Virus record (IMG/VR): IMGVR_UViG_3300044806_000313
Coordinates: 1-48,268 of that record
Direction: 5' to 3' (one strand)
DNA length: 48,268 nucleotides
Source: a virus
Taxonomy: Duplodnaviria > Caudoviricetes
This document shows, in pieces, positions 2,067 to 39,797 of this stretch; position 1 is the first letter of the stretch; every line of letters starts with the position of its first letter. The notes beneath the pieces are model-generated. The model was given only the letters and a program-made list of their open reading frames with translations. It was not told where the DNA came from and ran no database searches. A program made the position numbers and the translations under genes.

Positions 2067-2820
2067 TGCGGATAACACAGCGCCGGGCGCACTGTGCGCT
2101 TTAGATTGGCCTTTTTATAACGTCACTTTTGCCTACAACGACGGGGAAGTGACGCACCGGTTGAGACGCCCGCAGCGCCAAGCACGCGACGGCAACGATT
2201 TTGTCAATGAGGCGGTCAAGTTCTTTGCTCTGACAAAGAGCGAGACATTTATCAAGAACGGCAAACGGCGCACGCCTGCGGCAAGCGACGACGCCACGCA
2301 CAATTGGCTTTATGACCGACTGATTAAAGACGTGCAAGGCTTTGAAATGCCGTTCGGTGATGGCTTTTGTGATGAGCTAAACGTTATCTACAAAAAGCAA
2401 GCGCTCAACGCTATGGCGGCTTATCGCGTTGAAATCTTGCACGAGAAGACGCGCCGCACGATGAAGGGCGGGTCATACGTTGTTAAAGCTTGGCACGGGC
2501 CGGAAAGCGCTGAGCATCTTGTCGGCGAATTCACTTTTGATTTCTGGTCGGAGGCAACGAAAAGCGCGTACAAGCGCAGCATTTCAATTGTTGAAGAGCG
2601 GAAAGGTGAAGAAGTTGTCGAAACCGTTGATATGTCAATGTTCGAGTACCTAAAAGTATTCGACGCCTGCATTCAATCGGCTACAGGCTGCGGCGTGACA
2701 GTTGGCGACGAGGTACGCCCGGCAACGGTTGCCGAATTGCGCGAGCATGCTGACGATTTTCTAAAGCTGCGCATCGCCGTGCTGCTTGTCACTCAATGGG
2801 AGCGCGTGCAGGGAAAATAG
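2056..2820 (+). CDS. Tail assembly chaperone (lambda gpG-like)
   Basis: Precedes the tape measure gene; ends CAG GGA AAA TAG with an in-phase slippery heptamer. Confidence 0.75.
   Translation: MQNDADNTAPGALCALDWPFYNVTFAYNDGEVTHRLRRPQRQARDGNDFVNEAVKFFALTKSETFIKNGKRRTPAASDDATHNWLYDRLIKDVQGFEMPFGDGFCDELNVIYKKQALNAMAAYRVEILHEKTRRTMKGGSYVVKAWHGPESAEHLVGEFTFDFWSEATKSAYKRSISIVEERKGEEVVETVDMSMFEYLKVFDACIQSATGCGVTVGDEVRPATVAELREHADDFLKLRIAVLLVTQWERVQGK
2811..2817 (+). promoter_or_regulatory. -1 programmed ribosomal frameshift site G GGA AAA
   Basis: X XXY YYZ heptamer immediately before the stop; the -1 frame is open to 3122; analogous to lambda G/GT (GGGAAAG). Confidence 0.85.
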
Positions 2821-17063: not shown

Positions 17064-17498
17064 ATGCCGCTCAAGTTCACGCAAGGCACGCCGCAAATGC
17101 TTCGCAAGCTTGCCCGCTTGTGGTGGCGTCGCGTTGGCGCGCAAGAGTGGACGTTGCAAATCAGCGTGAAGCCGGAAACAGAATTCGCGGCAACGAATGA
17201 ATCCAAAGAATACGCATTGGCTTATCTTTCAGTTCGCCACGTATTGCAGCCATACATTGATGCGCAAGTTTCAATCAACGAATACACGTTGACGCGAGAC
17301 GAGGGCTTTATTCGTGACACTTTAGTTCACGAGATGAGGCACTTGCATTACGCGAAGATTGCCGAGTTGATGAAGTTTTTGTATGAGTCGAAGCACAGCG
17401 CAACGCAAGACATCGCGCAAAAGCTGATTGCCGATTTGGTGGAAGAAATGATCGAGCGCGATGTGGCGTTGTTTCGGGAGGCGTACAGAGGGAAATAA
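17064..17498 (+). CDS. Small HExxH zinc metallopeptidase-like protein
   Basis: 'TLVHEMRHL' with a downstream 'EE'. Confidence 0.65.
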   Translation: MPLKFTQGTPQMLRKLARLWWRRVGAQEWTLQISVKPETEFAATNESKEYALAYLSVRHVLQPYIDAQVSINEYTLTRDEGFIRDTLVHEMRHLHYAKIAELMKFLYESKHSATQDIAQKLIADLVEEMIERDVALFREAYRGK

Positions 17499-17653
17499 CC
17501 CAATTATCGAAGTCCAAGAAGGTATACCGAGTGCGTCTGATAAACAATCTTATGGGTAAATCCGAAAATCATAAATGATACTTATAGGCAGAATCGCGGC
17601 GCATCCGCGCCAGTTCCACGCGTGAAACCTATTCGCCCGTGGTAAGGGTGGAA

Positions 17654-17845
17654 TTATGCAGCCCACAATTCCGGCTGCGATTTTGCCATCTCATCAATCA
17701 GCGCAACGTAAGCCCGATGCTCAACGAGCGCCCGCGTGCGACAGATCAGCCAGAGTTCGTCATCTGTTGGCTTGCCGTGTGCATCGAACGCGCCGCCGCA
17801 TTGCTCGTACAGCATCGCGGCAAGTTCGGCTAATTCGTCGTTCAC
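17654..17845 (-). CDS. Hypothetical protein (last gene of the early operon)
   Basis: 63-aa ORF, GTGA-coupled to the upstream acidic ORF. Confidence 0.55.
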   Translation of the reverse strand: MNDELAELAAMLYEQCGGAFDAHGKPTDDELWLICRTRALVEHRAYVALIDEMAKSQPELWAA

Positions 17846-18021
17846 GCGGCCTCCGCCAATTGCTCAGCTTCTACCATTTCGGCCTCCGCCAAGATCGCTA
17901 AAATATCGGCGTCGTCATTCGGATTGTCGGATTCGATCAGGCTCAAAAGTTGCTCAAGCTGTGCGTCGTAATCCGGTTGCGCGTCCTCTGTTAAGGTTGA
18001 GCTCAATTGCACGTCTGACAT
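17842..18021 (-). CDS. 59-aa strongly acidic protein (not in the ORF track)
   Basis: AGGAG RBS; MSDVQLSSTLTEDAQPDYDAQLEQLLSLIESDNPNDDADILAILAEAEMVEAEQLAEAA; 16 D/E and no K/R/H. Confidence 0.7.
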   Translation of the reverse strand: MSDVQLSSTLTEDAQPDYDAQLEQLLSLIESDNPNDDADILAILAEAEMVEAEQLAEAA

Positions 18022-18922
18022 TTCGATCTCCTAATCTTTCGATTTTCTGCGCGGCTGCAATCGTAAATGCCCGCACTTCTTTATTCAAAACCACATCAGG
18101 CACTAGGCCCGCTTCCTTGTCCGCTTTTGTCGCTCGGCACCACTTGCCGCCCTTGAAAACGTGCAATCTTTTCCACAGGGCGCGCACGTCCGCGCTTGTC
18201 GTTTTCCATTCGGTGCGCCATTCGCACGGCAGCGTTTTGCCTGTTGGTGCGGGGTTTTGGTGCACGCTGGTGCGCGTTTTTGGTGCGATTGCAAGCAAAG
18301 GGGTTACGGGTTTCGCCACTGGTGCACGCACTGGTGCGGTGTCTTGGTGCACAGCTTCGGCGCCAACGCTCGGCACCAAGTGCAACTTTTGGTGCGCGGC
18401 TTGGTGCGGCACTGGTGCGGCGTTGCTTGGTGCGGAGTTTTCCACAGGCTGCGGCCCGGCTATTCCGGCGGTGGAAGTGTCTCGCCGATTACCTGCCCAG
18501 CCTTGCTGAACAGGACTGATGCCCGCTCCGTTATCAGTGCCGACATTGCAAAAACTGCCAGTAAGCAAAACTTCATTTTTTGCATCACCGTCCAAGTTTT
18601 TACTTGACGCAGCACCGGGATTAATTCTTGCGGAATGCCGAATGTTCGCATTACCCGAAGTGTCAAAGTTGCCATGCCGCTCCCCTTCCCTTTCGGGTGT
18701 TTCTAATGTTTCTGCTTCGTCGCCTACATGTGAACTCCGGCCAGCAGGTTGATTGCCGCTATTGCCGCAAGAATCGCGATGACGAGCCTCCACGCCGTCA
18801 TCTTCCTGGCTGTCTTGTCGCTGAAAATCCATAGCGCCACTAACAGGCTGAACAGCCCCGCCACTATCGCAAATGTGTTCATAGTTATTCCTTCCAGCCC
18901 GGTCTTTCACCGGGCCTGATCT
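17954..18922 (-). CDS. -1-frame extension of the 18907-19449 membrane protein (low-complexity linker, repeat region, basic C-terminal domain)
   Basis: Open for 322 codons from the slippery site; the predicted fusion is about 498 aa. Confidence 0.6.
   Translation of the reverse strand, partial: RSGPVKDRAGRNNYEHICDSGGAVQPVSGAMDFQRQDSQEDDGVEARHRDSCGNSGNQPAGRSSHVGDEAETLETPEREGERHGNFDTSGNANIRHSARINPGAASSKNLDGDAKNEVLLTGSFCNVGTDNGAGISPVQQGWAGNRRDTSTAGIAGPQPVENSAPSNAAPVPHQAAHQKLHLVPSVGAEAVHQDTAPVRAPVAKPVTPLLAIAPKTRTSVHQNPAPTGKTLPCEWRTEWKTTSADVRALWKRLHVFKGGKWCRATKADKEAGLVPDVVLNKEVRAFTIAAAQKIERLGDRNVRRAIELNLNRGRATGLRRTA
18245..18433. repeat. Array of 11 direct TGGTGC hexamers plus one inverted copy
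   Basis: Copies at 18245, 18258, 18268, 18281, 18320, 18332, 18345, 18390, 18402, 18413, 18428; GCACCA at 18373. Confidence 0.85.
18460..18675 (-). CDS. 71-aa hypothetical protein nested in the -1-frame ORF
   Basis: Purine-rich RBS (GGGAAGGGGAG) before the ATG; one hydrophobic stretch. Confidence 0.5.
   Translation of the reverse strand: MATLTLRVMRTFGIPQELIPVLRQVKTWTVMQKMKFCLLAVFAMSALITERASVLFSKAGQVIGETLPPPE
18724..18882 (-). CDS. 52-aa two-TM membrane peptide nested in the -1-frame ORF (not in the ORF track)
   Basis: AAGGA RBS; MNTFAIVAGLFSLLVALWIFSDKTARKMTAWRLVIAILAAIAAINLLAGVHM. Confidence 0.65.
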   Translation of the reverse strand: MNTFAIVAGLFSLLVALWIFSDKTARKMTAWRLVIAILAAIAAINLLAGVHM

Positions 18923-18928
18923 TTTGGG
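18897..18928 (-). promoter_or_regulatory. -1 frameshift signal: C CCA AAA, 6-nt spacer, GCCCGGT-GAAAG-ACCGGGC hairpin
   Basis: In-phase heptamer at 18928-18922 and a 7-bp stem at 18915-18897; the -1 frame is long and open. Confidence 0.75.
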
Positions 18929-19449
18929 ACTCGTGCCCGTGCTGTTCCAACCGCGAAAAACACGAGCGATAGAGCAAGCTCAATAAACCCCAGCAACGCA
19001 GCAATCGTGGCAACCTCGTCACCGAACGCTTTGTCAAGTTTGCTGGCTTGCGTCGCACTTAGCCCAATTTGGTGCGCAATCGTTTTTGAGGTCGTTTTGC
19101 TGGCTGCACTAACCCCTGCCTCAAATTTCTTCACCTGCGCCAAATTGAATGACTCGACGCCCGCCGCCTTTGCGCCGTTGTGGATCAGATAACCAGCGTT
19201 GCAGGCCACGGCAATCGCTAAGACGATTTTCATCAGCGTTTCGCCCTTCACTTCGACGTGGAAGAAAAACAGGGAGACGCAGCCCGCAATGAAGGCAGAG
19301 GCAAAAACCCACGCGCCGAGCTTCGGCCCGTAAGTCTGGAACGCGGCCCAACCGATTGCGCCAACCAAGACGGCGTGAATGAGAATAAACAAGCTCCACT
19401 CGAAAAGGGAGCGCTTCGTTGTCGTTTGTGAGGTCTTTTCGTTTTCCAT
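18907..19449 (-). CDS. Multi-pass (about 4 TM) membrane protein
   Basis: 180 aa with four hydrophobic segments; AGGTGGA RBS. Confidence 0.8.
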   Translation of the reverse strand: MENEKTSQTTTKRSLFEWSLFILIHAVLVGAIGWAAFQTYGPKLGAWVFASAFIAGCVSLFFFHVEVKGETLMKIVLAIAVACNAGYLIHNGAKAAGVESFNLAQVKKFEAGVSAASKTTSKTIAHQIGLSATQASKLDKAFGDEVATIAALLGFIELALSLVFFAVGTARARVPKDQAR

Positions 19450-19474
19450 AATTCCACCTGTGAGGTCGTCCGTT

Positions 19475-19675
19475 TTACTTTGCCTTAGCTTCCTGCCATT
19501 GCATTTCTACTTTATCAACGCGAAACCCGGCTCGCTGCATTGATGACCATTCGCTTTTCCAGCACTCGCAAGCGGCTTTGATGGCCTCTTTGCGCGTGCC
19601 TCGCGTCCAATCCGTAATGATCCACTCTGACCGCTTACCTTGCATTACGATTGCCCAAGCTATTTGCACTCTCAC
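19475..19675 (-). CDS. Hypothetical Trp-rich small protein
   Basis: GTGA-coupled start; part of the early small-ORF array. Confidence 0.5.
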   Translation of the reverse strand: MRVQIAWAIVMQGKRSEWIITDWTRGTRKEAIKAACECWKSEWSSMQRAGFRVDKVEMQWQEAKAK

Positions 19676-19857
19676 GCCGCCACCCCCTTTGCTTTCGCCG
19701 CCCGCGTCAAGCGCGCAACGTAGTTTTTGACAATATGCACGCGCACGCATTTGCACGTGCGGCTTATCGCCGCGCCGTGGTTCGCGTGAACGTGCGCGCT
19801 GTATTTGTGCTGTGTGCCGCAAGGGCAAGTGAAGCTGTGTTTATTTTGGCTCATCAC
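19672..19857 (-). CDS. Small Cys-motif (zinc-ribbon-like) protein
   Basis: CPC...CKC motifs. Confidence 0.55.
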   Translation of the reverse strand: MMSQNKHSFTCPCGTQHKYSAHVHANHGAAISRTCKCVRVHIVKNYVARLTRAAKAKGVAA

Positions 19858-20167
19858 TCACCCCCTGCGCAGACTCAGCGGGGGCCGTAGCCAATAGCGA
19901 AGTCATAGCCCCATGCCGTTCGCGCAGTCGTTTTTCTATTTCAATAAATTTGAGCATCAAGTCTTGCAACGCTTTGAGAGTGACAACCACACGCGCTGTT
20001 TCTATAGCGGTTTCCCGTTTAAGCTCAACGCGGCCATCATCTAACCCGCCCGCTTTAACGGTGTAAGCAAATTCTGCTGTGTTAATAATCAACTCAATCG
20101 CAGCCAGCGGCTTGCCCTCGTCATCAAGCCAATAATCGTTTTCACCGAGCGCGACGATTTGTTTCAT
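19841..20167 (-). CDS. Hypothetical protein
   Basis: AGGAGG RBS before ATG 20167. Confidence 0.6.
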   Translation of the reverse strand: MKQIVALGENDYWLDDEGKPLAAIELIINTAEFAYTVKAGGLDDGRVELKRETAIETARVVVTLKALQDLMLKFIEIEKRLRERHGAMTSLLATAPAESAQGVSDEPK

Positions 20168-20358
20168 TGTGTTGCCTCCTGCGCTTCCGCTTCGCCTTTG
20201 TCGCGCTTGCTCCACATCAGAACAAGCTCAGCCTCTACAAATTCGGGCGATTGCCGCCAATGCTCAAGGCCTGTGCCAGACTCGCCCGCGAATTGGTCAA
20301 CAAACCAGCCAAGCAACCGCAGTGCTTGCTCGTGCGCCGTTTCGGGCTGCTTATTCAT
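20164..20358 (-). CDS. Hypothetical protein
   Basis: Coupled small ORF in the array. Confidence 0.55.
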   Translation of the reverse strand: MNKQPETAHEQALRLLGWFVDQFAGESGTGLEHWRQSPEFVEAELVLMWSKRDKGEAEAQEATQ

Positions 20359-20560
20359 CGCTCACCCCCTGCGCGGCTTCGACTGCCGCTTTGAATGCCA
20401 GGATGCGCTCATCGGCGATCTTGCGATAAATCTTTTGATATTTTGGCGTAATCTTTTGCCAGTATGAAAACTCTTGATTTCGGTCGCCGTCGGAAGCAAT
20501 GCAGAACGCCACGTATTCCCGCAACCAATGCGTTTGCTCGAATGATTTCAATTGCTCCAT
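20351..20560 (-). CDS. Hypothetical protein
   Basis: Coupled small ORF with RBS. Confidence 0.55.
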   Translation of the reverse strand: MEQLKSFEQTHWLREYVAFCIASDGDRNQEFSYWQKITPKYQKIYRKIADERILAFKAAVEAAQGVSDE

Positions 20561-23903: not shown

Positions 23904-24694
23904 TTTGCTTTTTGCTGACAGGTGCATTCTTCGGGCGGGTTCAATGCCACGCCGTTACGCTTGAAAATAAATCCTGAGCCATCACAGGCACAGGCGCGTT
24001 TCGCAGGCGTCGCTCGCGCGCTCTTTCGAGCCTGCCACGCTGCCACCGCTTGATCGTCTTTGCCGTTTTTCAACGCCCACCGCGCGCGATTGATCGCTTC
24101 CGCGTCGGTCACGCATTTGCCCATTTCACGGTGAAAGCTTTCGTAGGTTTGAAAATCGTACTTGCCAACGTTTGCGCTCCCGTCCCTAACCATTGCCGTC
24201 GCTGCTGCTGCGACCCGCTGATAGTGCTTCTGCTCAGCAGCAACGGTTAATATGGTTAATGGTTCTATGTCTATATATGCACCACTCGTTTTGTCACCCT
24301 TTGGCTCGATTTTGTCACCCTTTGATGGCTCGTTTGTCACCCTTTGCGGTTCAATAGGTGCGATTTTGTCACCCTTTGCTGTCACCCTTTCAGCGTCTAA
24401 AGGGTGAAGACTGTTGTCACCCTTTGCGACTTGCGGAAGTGCAATTGTGTAGCGCGTAAAATTACCTTTTCCGTTGCCGCGAACGATTAAAAGTTCGCCT
24501 GTTTTTTCCAGTTCTTTGATGTAGCGGATCAATGTGCGCTCTGAAAGATTGGCTTCGGATGAAATGAGTTCGTATCCGGCTGACGCTGTGAACGTATCCG
24601 CGCTCGCGTGCGTGGCAATGACCATCAGGACAAGCCGTGCCTCCGCTTTTGTGCGTGAATATTTCATTACTGATTCAACCGCCTGATAGCTCAT
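23900..24694 (-). CDS. Replication initiator (winged-helix, lambda O-like role)
   Basis: N-terminal wHTH 'LSERTLIRYIKELEKTGEL'; internal iterons; ATGA-coupled to dnaB; C-terminal Cys motif. Confidence 0.85.
   Translation of the reverse strand: MSYQAVESVMKYSRTKAEARLVLMVIATHASADTFTASAGYELISSEANLSERTLIRYIKELEKTGELLIVRGNGKGNFTRYTIALPQVAKGDNSLHPLDAERVTAKGDKIAPIEPQRVTNEPSKGDKIEPKGDKTSGAYIDIEPLTILTVAAEQKHYQRVAAAATAMVRDGSANVGKYDFQTYESFHREMGKCVTDAEAINRARWALKNGKDDQAVAAWQARKSARATPAKRACACDGSGFIFKRNGVALNPPEECTCQQKAK
24246..24425. repeat. Probable replication origin: six TGTCACCCTTT iterons plus an adjacent AT-rich tract
   Basis: Copies at 24292, 24313, 24335, 24367, 24380, 24415; partial inverted copy at 24399; AT-rich 24246-24280. 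Confidence 0.85.
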
Positions 24695-29825: not shown

Positions 29826-30167
29826 ATGGCTAGGCCGTCTAAGAATCCCGCTGACGTTCTGCAACCACAAGCTCTCGCATTAAACGAGAGTGAGCTGGCT
29901 GCACTTTCCCGCTATGCTTTCGCTCGTGGCATCTACACCAAGGGCAATAGTAAAGCGGCTCGTGAGTTGATCCAGTTAGGGATATTTTTTGCTGACTCTT
30001 TAATGATGGCTGATAAAAACTATAAATCGCTCATAGACAACATTTTGCAGGCGTCCGACGCCGGGCAGACATCCGTCATTAACGAGCAAACTACGCACGA
30101 CGCAGAACCACCAATTCCCGTGATTGCCGTACACCCTCAAGCGCGGGGAAAACCAAGGCCAACTTAA
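29826..30167 (+). CDS. Putative repressor (ribbon-helix-helix/CopG-like)
   Basis: 'ALALNESELAALSRYA...NSKAARELIQLG' fits a strand-helix-helix pattern; GATAAT 6 nt before the ATG suggests a leaderless mRNA. Confidence 0.55.
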   Translation: MARPSKNPADVLQPQALALNESELAALSRYAFARGIYTKGNSKAARELIQLGIFFADSLMMADKNYKSLIDNILQASDAGQTSVINEQTTHDAEPPIPVIAVHPQARGKPRPT

Positions 30168-30190
30168 CCGCCAGTGCAGCGGTCAACCTT

Positions 30191-30496
30191 TTGAGGCAAG
30201 GATCAATGGGTACGACAAAGCTACGCGAGCGCATTGAAATGGTTCAAGCTATAGCCAATACCCAAACAGGCGACAGACTTGAACTTTCCCCCAAGACCGG
30301 ACGCCCACGGTTTGCCGAAATTGTGGATGATCCACGAATCGCCGATGGCTTGGTTGTCGGCGCAGCCCTGATGCTCGGAACGGTGCAAGACGTAAGGGGA
30401 AATTACCTAGTGAACAACGGAAAAACCGTACAGCGGTTTTCAAAAGCCACAGCCAAACTGATAATGCTGGATCATTTTGGCGCATACACCCTCTGA
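30191..30496 (+). CDS. Hypothetical protein
   Basis: 101-aa ORF; start uncertain. Confidence 0.5.
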   Translation: MRQGSMGTTKLRERIEMVQAIANTQTGDRLELSPKTGRPRFAEIVDDPRIADGLVVGAALMLGTVQDVRGNYLVNNGKTVQRFSKATAKLIMLDHFGAYTL

Positions 30497-38942: not shown

Positions 38943-39797
38943 ATGCAACCACCCCAAGCACTCGTTCAAGTTCAATACGCACCAGCCGAACAGCAAGAGC
39001 AGCGGTTCAGTCTGTTCGATGTGCCTGGATTCAACTATTCGCGCACGGGGCTGCAAATTGACCAAGACGTGCCATATGAGCAATGGGAGCGGTATGGCAT
39101 GGGGTTGAAGTGGGCAAAAGATTCTATTGAATGGGCAATAGGCGACTGGATCAACTTCGGCGAAGCAGCGTATGGCGAAAAATATGCACAGGCAATAGCG
39201 ATTACAGGCAAGGCGTATCAGACGTTGATGAATAACGCCTTTGTCGCGTCACGTTTCCCAATCTACCGACGTCGGGAGAATCTTGCTTTTGATATTTATT
39301 CATCTATTGCGCCGCTACAGCCGGATGAGCAAGACAAGATTCTTGACGAAGCGGAAGCGACGGACGCGTCTGTTCGTGAAGTGCGCCTACTCGTAAAGCT
39401 CCACAAGGCTGAAAAGCAAGCGAAGCGCAGCGGCAAATTCTTTGACGCAAACATTGAAGCAGCGCGCATCTTTTGGGAACGGCTAAGGCCGCAGATTGAA
39501 GAATTCCAACAGATATTTCCACCCGCAGCGCTTCACGTCCCAACGTTCCTCGATGACGTAAACGAGGCGCTGGATATGTCATTCAATGACCCGCCGCAAT
39601 TCATCCTTGAAGCGTTGGAGCAACAGCCGCGCACGACGCAAGAGCTTTTGAAAGCTACGGGTTATTGCCGCGATACGTTGGAAGCGTTGTTAAAAGAGCT
39701 TGAGGCAGCGGGCAGCATTGCGGAGTTGTCGCAAGGGCAAGTCACAGAAATGGCACGCGGAGCAGTGCAAACCGTTTGGGTGTGCGTGGAAGGATAA
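38943..39797 (+). CDS. LmbU-like DNA-binding protein with C-terminal wHTH
   Basis: 'WAIGDWINFGE..YGEKY..A...TG..YQTL.N...VASRF...RRRENL.F' matches the LmbU pattern as I recall it. Confidence 0.7.
   Translation: MQPPQALVQVQYAPAEQQEQRFSLFDVPGFNYSRTGLQIDQDVPYEQWERYGMGLKWAKDSIEWAIGDWINFGEAAYGEKYAQAIAITGKAYQTLMNNAFVASRFPIYRRRENLAFDIYSSIAPLQPDEQDKILDEAEATDASVREVRLLVKLHKAEKQAKRSGKFFDANIEAARIFWERLRPQIEEFQQIFPPAALHVPTFLDDVNEALDMSFNDPPQFILEALEQQPRTTQELLKATGYCRDTLEALLKELEAAGSIAELSQGQVTEMARGAVQTVWVCVEG

Follow-up and report, generated by a model that had tools for sequence, protein, structure and literature searches.

Organization of the Locus

The virus record IMGVR_UViG_3300044806_000313 was analyzed over its whole length of 48,268 bp, hereafter called the window. 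It has direct terminal repeats and its genes include terminase, portal, capsid, tape measure, integrase, RecT, a replication initiator, DnaB and RusA; by this gene content it belongs to a temperate phage with a long tail. Its leftward early operon has at the far end a module, with all parts on the minus strand, in which a gene for a small membrane protein appears to be prolonged by a -1 ribosomal frameshift into a long tail (Table 1). A first-pass annotation of this DNA had proposed a membrane protein with a short form of 180 amino acids (aa) and a long form of about 498 aa, genes nested in the -1 region, a DNA repeat array, a basic C-terminal domain and an acidic partner. All of these parts were found. 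The 322 codons of the open -1 frame, added to the 176 codons preceding the shift, give a predicted long form of 498 aa; two 0-frame open reading frames (ORFs) with ribosome-binding sites lie inside the -1 region; GCACCA occurs 13 times within 18137-18433; and the last 95 aa of the long form carry a net charge of +12, against -16 for the 59-aa partner ORF (18021-17842).

Table 1. Coordinates of the module and adjoining features in the window.
Feature	Position	Strand	Remarks
Short form, 180 aa	18907..19449	-	Four predicted membrane helices; founder of a small undescribed family
Slippery heptamer C CCA AAA	18922..18928	-	In phase; 19 nucleotides (nt) before the stop codon
Stem-loop, 8 bp after a 5-nt spacer	18896..18916	-	Arms 18916-18909 / 18903-18896; contains the 0-frame stop codon
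-1 frame, 322 codons	17954..18922	-	Linker, repeat region and basic C-terminal domain; predicted long form 498 aa
Nested 0-frame ORF, 52 aa	18724..18882	-	Two hydrophobic stretches, ribosome-binding site; counterparts tested in 10 other loci
Nested 0-frame ORF, 71 aa	18460..18675	-	One hydrophobic stretch; strong ribosome-binding site, which is kept in MW202444.1
GCACCA array	18137..18433	-	11 copies share one orientation and mostly follow each other at 10-15 nt, 2 further copies are inverted; in all three frames
Basic C-terminal domain of the long form, ~90 aa	17957..18226	-	Net charge +12 over the last 95 aa; predicted to read the array
Acidic partner gene, 59 aa	17842..18021	-	0 frame; shares 68 nt with the end of the -1 frame
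63-aa ORF	17654..17845	-	Coupled to the partner gene through overlapping GTGA; the leftward early operon ends with it

The hydrophobic stretches of the 180-aa protein lie near residues 14-38, 44-65, 71-89 and 145-170 (n = 4). Its AlphaFold model is all-helical with a predicted local distance difference test score (pLDDT) of 73.5, and fold searches with this model gave no informative match. Likewise, no family of Pfam, PHROG, NCBIfam or PADLOC matched the protein above cut-off, in line with the earlier remark that the module is not recognizable as a described family. Its relatives are found in viral and metagenome contigs and in one GenBank phage, MW202444.1. A profile search against 1.84 billion representatives gave 23 matches, 22 of them 92-281 aa long; the other, of 1684 aa (last row, E 1e-3), was rejected as a repeat hit. 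No form fused in frame was seen among the family matches (longest 281 aa), nor at 418-2000 aa, the latter being a weak test. ESM Atlas matches stayed at 0.79-0.81 and serve as leads only, with no atlas match for the tail domain of the window, and the stretch had no match in Rfam. The neighbors scanned in 18 loci (105 of 152 listed ORFs) are phage replication and nucleotide genes, and in L006, L040 and L043 the module directly follows the integrase, the context in MW202444.1 being alike. No description of the family was found in the literature, of which few subscription papers and no supplements were covered. The module is real, conserved and apparently undescribed.

Frameshift Signal at the Junction

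The in-phase C CCA AAA and the hairpin that had been placed at the end of the 180-aa gene were both recovered, the heptamer at 18928-18922 and the hairpin as an 8-bp stem, which can alternatively be drawn, as in the first-pass annotation, with 7 Watson-Crick pairs after a 6-nt spacer. Compared with shuffled sequences, this stem reaches z = -2.7 to -2.8 in folds of 51 and 58 nt. Relatives were then compared at 67 loci. Four weak GTDB matches (E 2e-4 to 4e-4), whose ORF ends presumably resemble IMP dehydrogenase, were discarded before all counts and 6 loci ending before the stop codon were dropped, which left 57 loci; collapsing close relatives reduced these to 35 distinct junctions.

An in-phase heptamer of the form XXXYYYZ lies 7-28 nt before the stop codon in 56 of the 57 loci and in 34 of the 35 distinct junctions, and it is kept although the stretch that separates the last helix from the stop differs greatly in length across loci. 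It reads CCCAAAA in 22 junctions, GGGAAAA in 9, and CCCAAAC, CCCAAAT and AAAAAAA in one each, L043 being noncanonical. The best stem starts 5-6 nt downstream in 27/35 junctions and has at least 6 bp in 31/35. Its sequence differs while the pairing is kept: there are 24 different 5' arms among the 35 junctions, and the 11-bp stems of L011, L049 and L056, although different in sequence, all pair. The fold that follows the heptamer ranks in the best 5% of its own gene in 23 of 33 loci. Heptamer and stem are preserved across lineages only about 42-53% identical to the window protein, and also behind other membrane anchors (see below). As a control, 483 other ORFs from the same loci and from the window were inspected. 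Such a heptamer occurs in 6 of them, none with 130 or more open -1 codons, and one of the 6 is the window phage's own site before the tape-measure gene. Just three sites in the whole window have an in-phase heptamer close to the stop of a long ORF together with a -1 frame that is also long. Hence heptamer, hairpin and open -1 frame, whose conservation in homologues had been named as a check, are all three kept. A Shine-Dalgarno-like stimulator upstream of the heptamer is not conserved (8/33 loci). Judged from these sequence comparisons, -1 frameshifting very probably takes place at the junction.

The GGGAAAA lineage (L011, L049, L056, L027, L068) shows an 11-13-bp stem directly after the heptamer, with loops that in some cases reach 24-27 nt, and the best stem directly abuts the heptamer in 6 GGGAAAA loci. 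This arrangement is, as predicted from the folds, a second stimulator geometry. The junction of L043 (3318-3327) ends in C CGC CCT TAG, yet it is followed by the same 13-bp stem as in L048 and by a -1 frame of 237 codons; the site may have decayed, or slippage may happen on the stop codon itself. The tail of L043 is also borne by L103, there behind a canonical heptamer.

The hairpin was also listed by a terminator scan, as a terminator of the opposite strand. This reading was rejected, because it cannot explain a heptamer that is always in phase, and it fails as well on the switch from CCC to GGG and on loci where all neighbors run in the same direction.

The -1 Frame and Dual Coding of the Linker

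The open -1 frame of 322 codons is not expected by chance, as none of 4000 Markov resamples stays open that long. Where it is complete, the frame measures 116-322 codons across the family, and the 33 available -1 products fall into nine groups, or tail types, by their C-termini. In all 26 pairs that were compared (types A, A2, B and E; the pairs are not independent), the ratio of nonsynonymous to synonymous change (pN/pS) of the C-terminal domain read in the -1 frame is 0.06-0.31, whereas the other two frames give at least 1.0 in the same pairs. In type D, whose tail domain lies entirely within the overlap with the partner gene, there is constraint on both frames (0.50-0.64 and 0.80-0.84). These values indicate that the C-terminal domain of the -1 frame is under purifying selection. 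The tail of the window has a single relative, P0028, which is 86% identical over the last 114 aa and whose -1 frame stays open through a divergent nested region; selection on the window's own tail we infer from the family.

The linker of the -1 product, between the membrane part and the tail, is not conserved at the protein level. Small hydrophobic 0-frame ORFs with ribosome-binding sites lie inside it in 13/33 loci. For two comparable pairs, pN/pS marks the 0 frame as conserved (0.15 and 0.41), while the -1 frame drifts (2.2 and 2.9) without ever closing. The pattern is weaker in a third pair (0.79 and 1.40), and the pair formed by the window and MW202444.1 is too divergent to judge. Random synonymous recoding of both nested ORFs of the window leaves the -1 frame open with a probability of 0.045, and for all 15 nested ORFs tested, under each of which the -1 frame is open, the corresponding value is about 1e-11, these ORFs not being fully independent. 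Because the 0 frame is conserved, the -1 frame never closes and recoding mostly closes it, the linker is likely translated in both frames. The family shows DNA that is preserved by selection in two frames and whose bases also spell a DNA repeat code.

Tail Cassettes and Partner Genes

The C-terminal domain of the window has no family match. More generally, 19 tails gave no match in Pfam or PHROGs and 5 tails none in PADLOC, searches that cover known families only, and a profile comparison of the nine tail types reached a best probability of 20%, so that kinship between groups is not convincing. Most tails are basic. The model of the type A tail contains three strands and two helices (pLDDT 87), a strand-helix layout as in integrase arm-binding domains, although the match to such a domain, 3jtz, is weak (rank 32, Z 3.3, root-mean-square deviation 3.9, 56 aligned).

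Several comparisons separate the history of the tail from that of the membrane domain. The membrane domains of L028 and L029 are identical and the likeness extends for about 94 aa past the slip site, after which their tails differ; L047 and L053 follow the same pattern, with identical membrane domains and different tails. Between the window and MW202444.1 the membrane domain is 82% identical and the tails are different. Approximately unbiased tests (23 rows) reject a single clade for types B, C and D (p = 7e-6, 5e-74 and 4e-6, respectively); the tail types had been fixed before these tests, a tree having been viewed beforehand.

An out-of-sample search with the tails alone returned 20 loci, 16 on already known contigs and 4 new, one of which, L095, ends before the junction. 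All three informative new loci (L098, L102, L103) present an in-phase GGGAAAA or CCCAAAA, a stem and a tail in the -1 frame. Their upstream ORFs, of 247-265 codons, are multi-spanning hydrophobic proteins outside the family profile, the anchors of L098 and L102 giving no match to it. L098 combines a type A domain with the type A palindrome described below. As these loci join the tails to other membrane proteins, the design is wider than one protein family.

A 0-frame partner gene of 59-120 aa overlaps the tail in 30/33 loci and follows the tail type; across the family, most partners are near neutral. In the type D loci (L022, L040, L049, L054, L055, L068), a partner of 90-120 aa overlaps the entire tail domain, and conserved Trp-Arg codons of the tail supply the Shine-Dalgarno sequence of the partner. 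Taken together, the comparisons indicate that tail, array and partner form an exchangeable cassette, which has moved between lineages and between membrane anchors.

DNA Repeat Arrays

With its 13 copies, GCACCA forms the densest 6-mer cluster of the 48-kb genome, and 0 of 4000 resamples reach this number; the array of the window consists mostly of direct repeats. A 6- or 7-mer with nominal P ≤ 3e-6 is found in 26/33 loci. Palindromes make up other arrays: TGCCAC-NN-GTGGC in type A, TGCCAACGTTGGCA in type B, TGCTCCCTAGGGAGCA in L028, GCTAGTACTAGC in L029 and GTGAATATTCAC in L048. Cross-counts of the motifs between loci follow the tail type. Since the arrays of types A, B and W are present in several frames, they are DNA words and not peptide repeats. 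In six relative genomes, the array is the top 6-mer cluster in three, tied in one, ranked behind a different repeat region in one and absent in one. The type B palindrome is confined to the module in 2/2 genomes. L049 and L068 have domains that are 68% identical, and all the repeats have changed together between them. The idea that the tail binds the repeats of its own gene, raised in the first-pass annotation, gains indirect support from the fact that each tail type carries its own array.

Proposed Mechanism and Alternative Explanations

The explanation that we favor, and to which we give an even chance, is that the frameshift-made long form holds phage DNA at the host membrane by means of a tail that recognizes the array in its own gene. 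Most ribosomes would stop at 180 aa and a minority would slip by -1, adding the tail. The short form, the long form and the nested small proteins would build one membrane oligomer with a few long, flexible, DNA-gripping tails. Such a tail would grip the array in the phage's own DNA, so that this DNA would be held at the membrane, while the partner could modulate the grip or complete the tail. Cassette exchange would change the address, providing each phage with one of its own, and the purpose would most likely be to position or retain replicating or excised phage DNA. As for the central step, the tail probably binds its own array in a sequence-specific way; this prediction rests on the arrays, on the basic charge of most tails and on the precedents of SpdA2 and SpdB2 discussed below.

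A number of observations weigh against this explanation. L043 lacks a canonical heptamer, and L068 and L015 lack a short-range stem. The array is weak or missing in 7/33 loci, including all three A2 loci, and genome G004 has none. One-frame bias, seen for the palindromes of L029 and for 8 of 11 copies in L049, could mean peptide repeats. The array adjoins the tail, and linkage alone would suffice to move both as a unit. In type A tails, the last 95 aa carry a near-neutral charge, and the tail model, which is of type A, shows no clear known DNA-binding fold and gave no Foldseek match. A TraB/FtsK pump was detected neither in the window phage (0/1) nor in the relative genomes (0/5, three of them at least 90% complete), so that any DNA transport would proceed without a visible motor. 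Also, no host was found, in searches that included GTDB.

Palindromic sites are typical operators. One could accept the frameshift and regard the long form as a membrane-held regulator, whose tail, sitting on the array as on an operator or a roadblock, tunes the operon, including the nested genes and the partner. The position of the module, which ends early operons or directly follows the integrase (L006, L022, L040, L043), would suit such a role. So would the type A palindromes at a few other places of the genome (in 3/5 genomes), although the two extra sites inspected, in G003, sit within a coding region with peptide repeats. However, the arrays lie in the middle of genes and not at promoters, no sigma-70-like promoter being found in 17300-20200, and a regulator would have no need for a conserved, oligomer-like membrane partner or for many cassette types. 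We consider this explanation unlikely.

In polymorphic toxins, a constant N-terminal part is followed by an exchangeable C-terminal domain and a matched downstream immunity partner. The conserved N-terminus, the variable C-terminus and the type-matched downstream partner of the module recall this plan, and the basic tail of the window beside its acidic partner could fit it. The module would then be a toxin or exclusion system, with RexAB as the likeness for exclusion, in which an anchor bears variable toxic or sensing tails, the partner gives immunity and the frameshift keeps the toxic form scarce. The anchor of L098 has a faint match to SieB (E 0.077, below cut-off). Nevertheless, this leaves the type-specific DNA palindromes in several frames unexplained, no toxin, nuclease or defense family of PADLOC, Pfam or NCBIfam was matched, and most partners are not acidic but near neutral. 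A toxin or exclusion role is therefore also doubtful in our judgment.

Finally, it is very improbable that no frameshift occurs and that the -1 frame is a separate gene, translated from GTG 18910 by coupling, or a shadow of the nested genes. The GTG does overlap the stop codon in the window, the counterpart in MW202444.1 is annotated in GenBank as a separate coding sequence, and the linker lacks protein-level conservation; but independent initiation, which had been named as a possible source of all the product, cannot explain the family, because a start codon overlapping the 0-frame stop occurs in only 5/33 loci, never with a Shine-Dalgarno match, and the first in-frame start of L049 and of L068 comes 447 and 552 nt downstream, respectively, past most of the domain. 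This reading fits neither the persistence of heptamer and stem across distant lineages and other anchors nor a -1 frame that stays open under 15 nested ORFs.

The favored explanation of membrane-held phage DNA can be extended, with the odds leaning against it, to a general phage design, in which a -1 frameshift would act as a socket that plugs unrelated membrane anchors into self-addressed cassettes. Each cassette would comprise a tail that binds DNA, the array targeted by it and a regulator of its own, and additional membrane subunits would be overprinted on the linker. If true, this would give each temperate phage a private means of membrane attachment or partition, and would constitute a natural library of new DNA-binding specificities. 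Beyond this, the module represents a conserved frameshift family in non-structural phage genes, which appears in annotations as two separate hypothetical genes, for instance in MW202444.1. If the binding holds, at least nine new pairs of domain and target could be read from sequence, L049 and L068 offering a near-natural experiment, and it would become testable how temperate phages with neither partition ATPase nor DNA pump place their DNA in the cell.

Comparison with Known Systems

In phages, frameshifting is described, in the parts of the literature accessible to us, for tail chaperones and for capsid or tail extensions (PMC5009743, PMC10885494). As predicted for the module, the tail assembly chaperone G/GT comes in a short form and a C-terminally extended one, through a -1 shift close to where its gene ends (PMC5009743). 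Unlike G/GT, the module concerns a membrane protein instead of a soluble chaperone, lies in an early or integrase region rather than between the major tail and tape-measure genes, and has as its extension an exchangeable cassette with a DNA array, nested genes and a partner.

SpdB2 of the Streptomyces plasmid pSVH1 is an oligomeric membrane protein with four helices, and it binds DNA irrespective of sequence. The spd operons of pSVH1 and of some actinophages share with the module a four-helix membrane protein, small overlapping hydrophobic genes and the location on a mobile element, as far as the available text describes them (PMC4447253). In contrast to SpdB2, the short form has no N-terminal coiled coil in its AlphaFold model, and the accessible account of SpdB2 describes no frameshift (PMC4447253). 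As a proxy for kinship we used DUF2637. This domain, which we take to be the SpdB2 family, matched 0 of 20 family members and nothing in the window genome at E 10. The likeness to Spd systems suggested in the first-pass annotation therefore stands for the architecture, with its four membrane helices, and falls for kinship, and since neither DUF2637 nor TraB/FtsK was found, the module belongs to none of the Spd systems.

SpdA2 of pIJ101 binds a palindrome within its own coding region (sps) and affects segregational stability (PMC4170104). A repeated or palindromic site inside the own gene is likewise present in 26/33 loci, where binding is a prediction. According to the portion of the source at hand, SpdA2 is a product of 135 aa with one conserved palindrome, as opposed to many type-specific arrays, and the text uses neither "transmembrane" nor "frameshift"; a membrane nature of SpdA2 is not borne out by it (PMC4170104).

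With polymorphic toxin-immunity systems, the module shares a variable C-terminal domain and a matched downstream partner; it differs from them in the predicted join by frameshift, in tails with DNA arrays and in the lack of any toxin family match. By analogy, and from the parts of these sources available, the module would be a blend of SpdB2 and SpdA2/sps features joined by a frameshift of the tail-chaperone type, and a member of none of these systems.

Reality of the Assembly and Other Features of the Window

Freshwater metagenomes are the best-matching sequencing runs for the window. A second viral contig matches the module region and is identical over 2001 nt, and the junction is spanned, with no change and no gap, by contigs from the runs X3 and X4, X3 being possibly the source sample. 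An assembly error was rejected on these two grounds. The one RNA run examined had no contigs on the stretch, and a plasmid search gave no match to the module.

Two other sites of the window combine a heptamer with an open -1 frame. At 2811-2820 (+), before the tape-measure gene, G GGA AAA stands directly before TAG and is followed by a stem, the -1 frame being open for 101 codons; this is presumably the expected tail-chaperone frameshift site. The same layout of heptamer and stop is seen at the junctions of L027 and L048. At 29826-30496 (+), a 113-aa ORF ends 6 codons after an in-phase G GGA AAA (30146), with a -1 frame open for 114 codons. This ORF, which has no relatives in viral contigs, occupies a repressor-like position where the operons diverge, and its stem is weak (-6.5); it is a possible third frameshift site of the phage.

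The module is bracketed by a perfect 12-nt inverted repeat (17647-17658 / 19447-19458), which reaches from the membrane gene's start codon to the stop codon of the 63-aa ORF. A 20-nt direct repeat (95% identical) is located at two gene junctions of the early operon, at 19851-19870 and 20355-20374. Upstream of the terminase genes, a 284-aa ORF at 38943-39797 (+) matches the LmbU regulator with 112.5 bits, below the cut-off of 125. Three copies of a 21-22-bp repeat, likely iterons, lie inside the replication initiator gene at 24285-24346.

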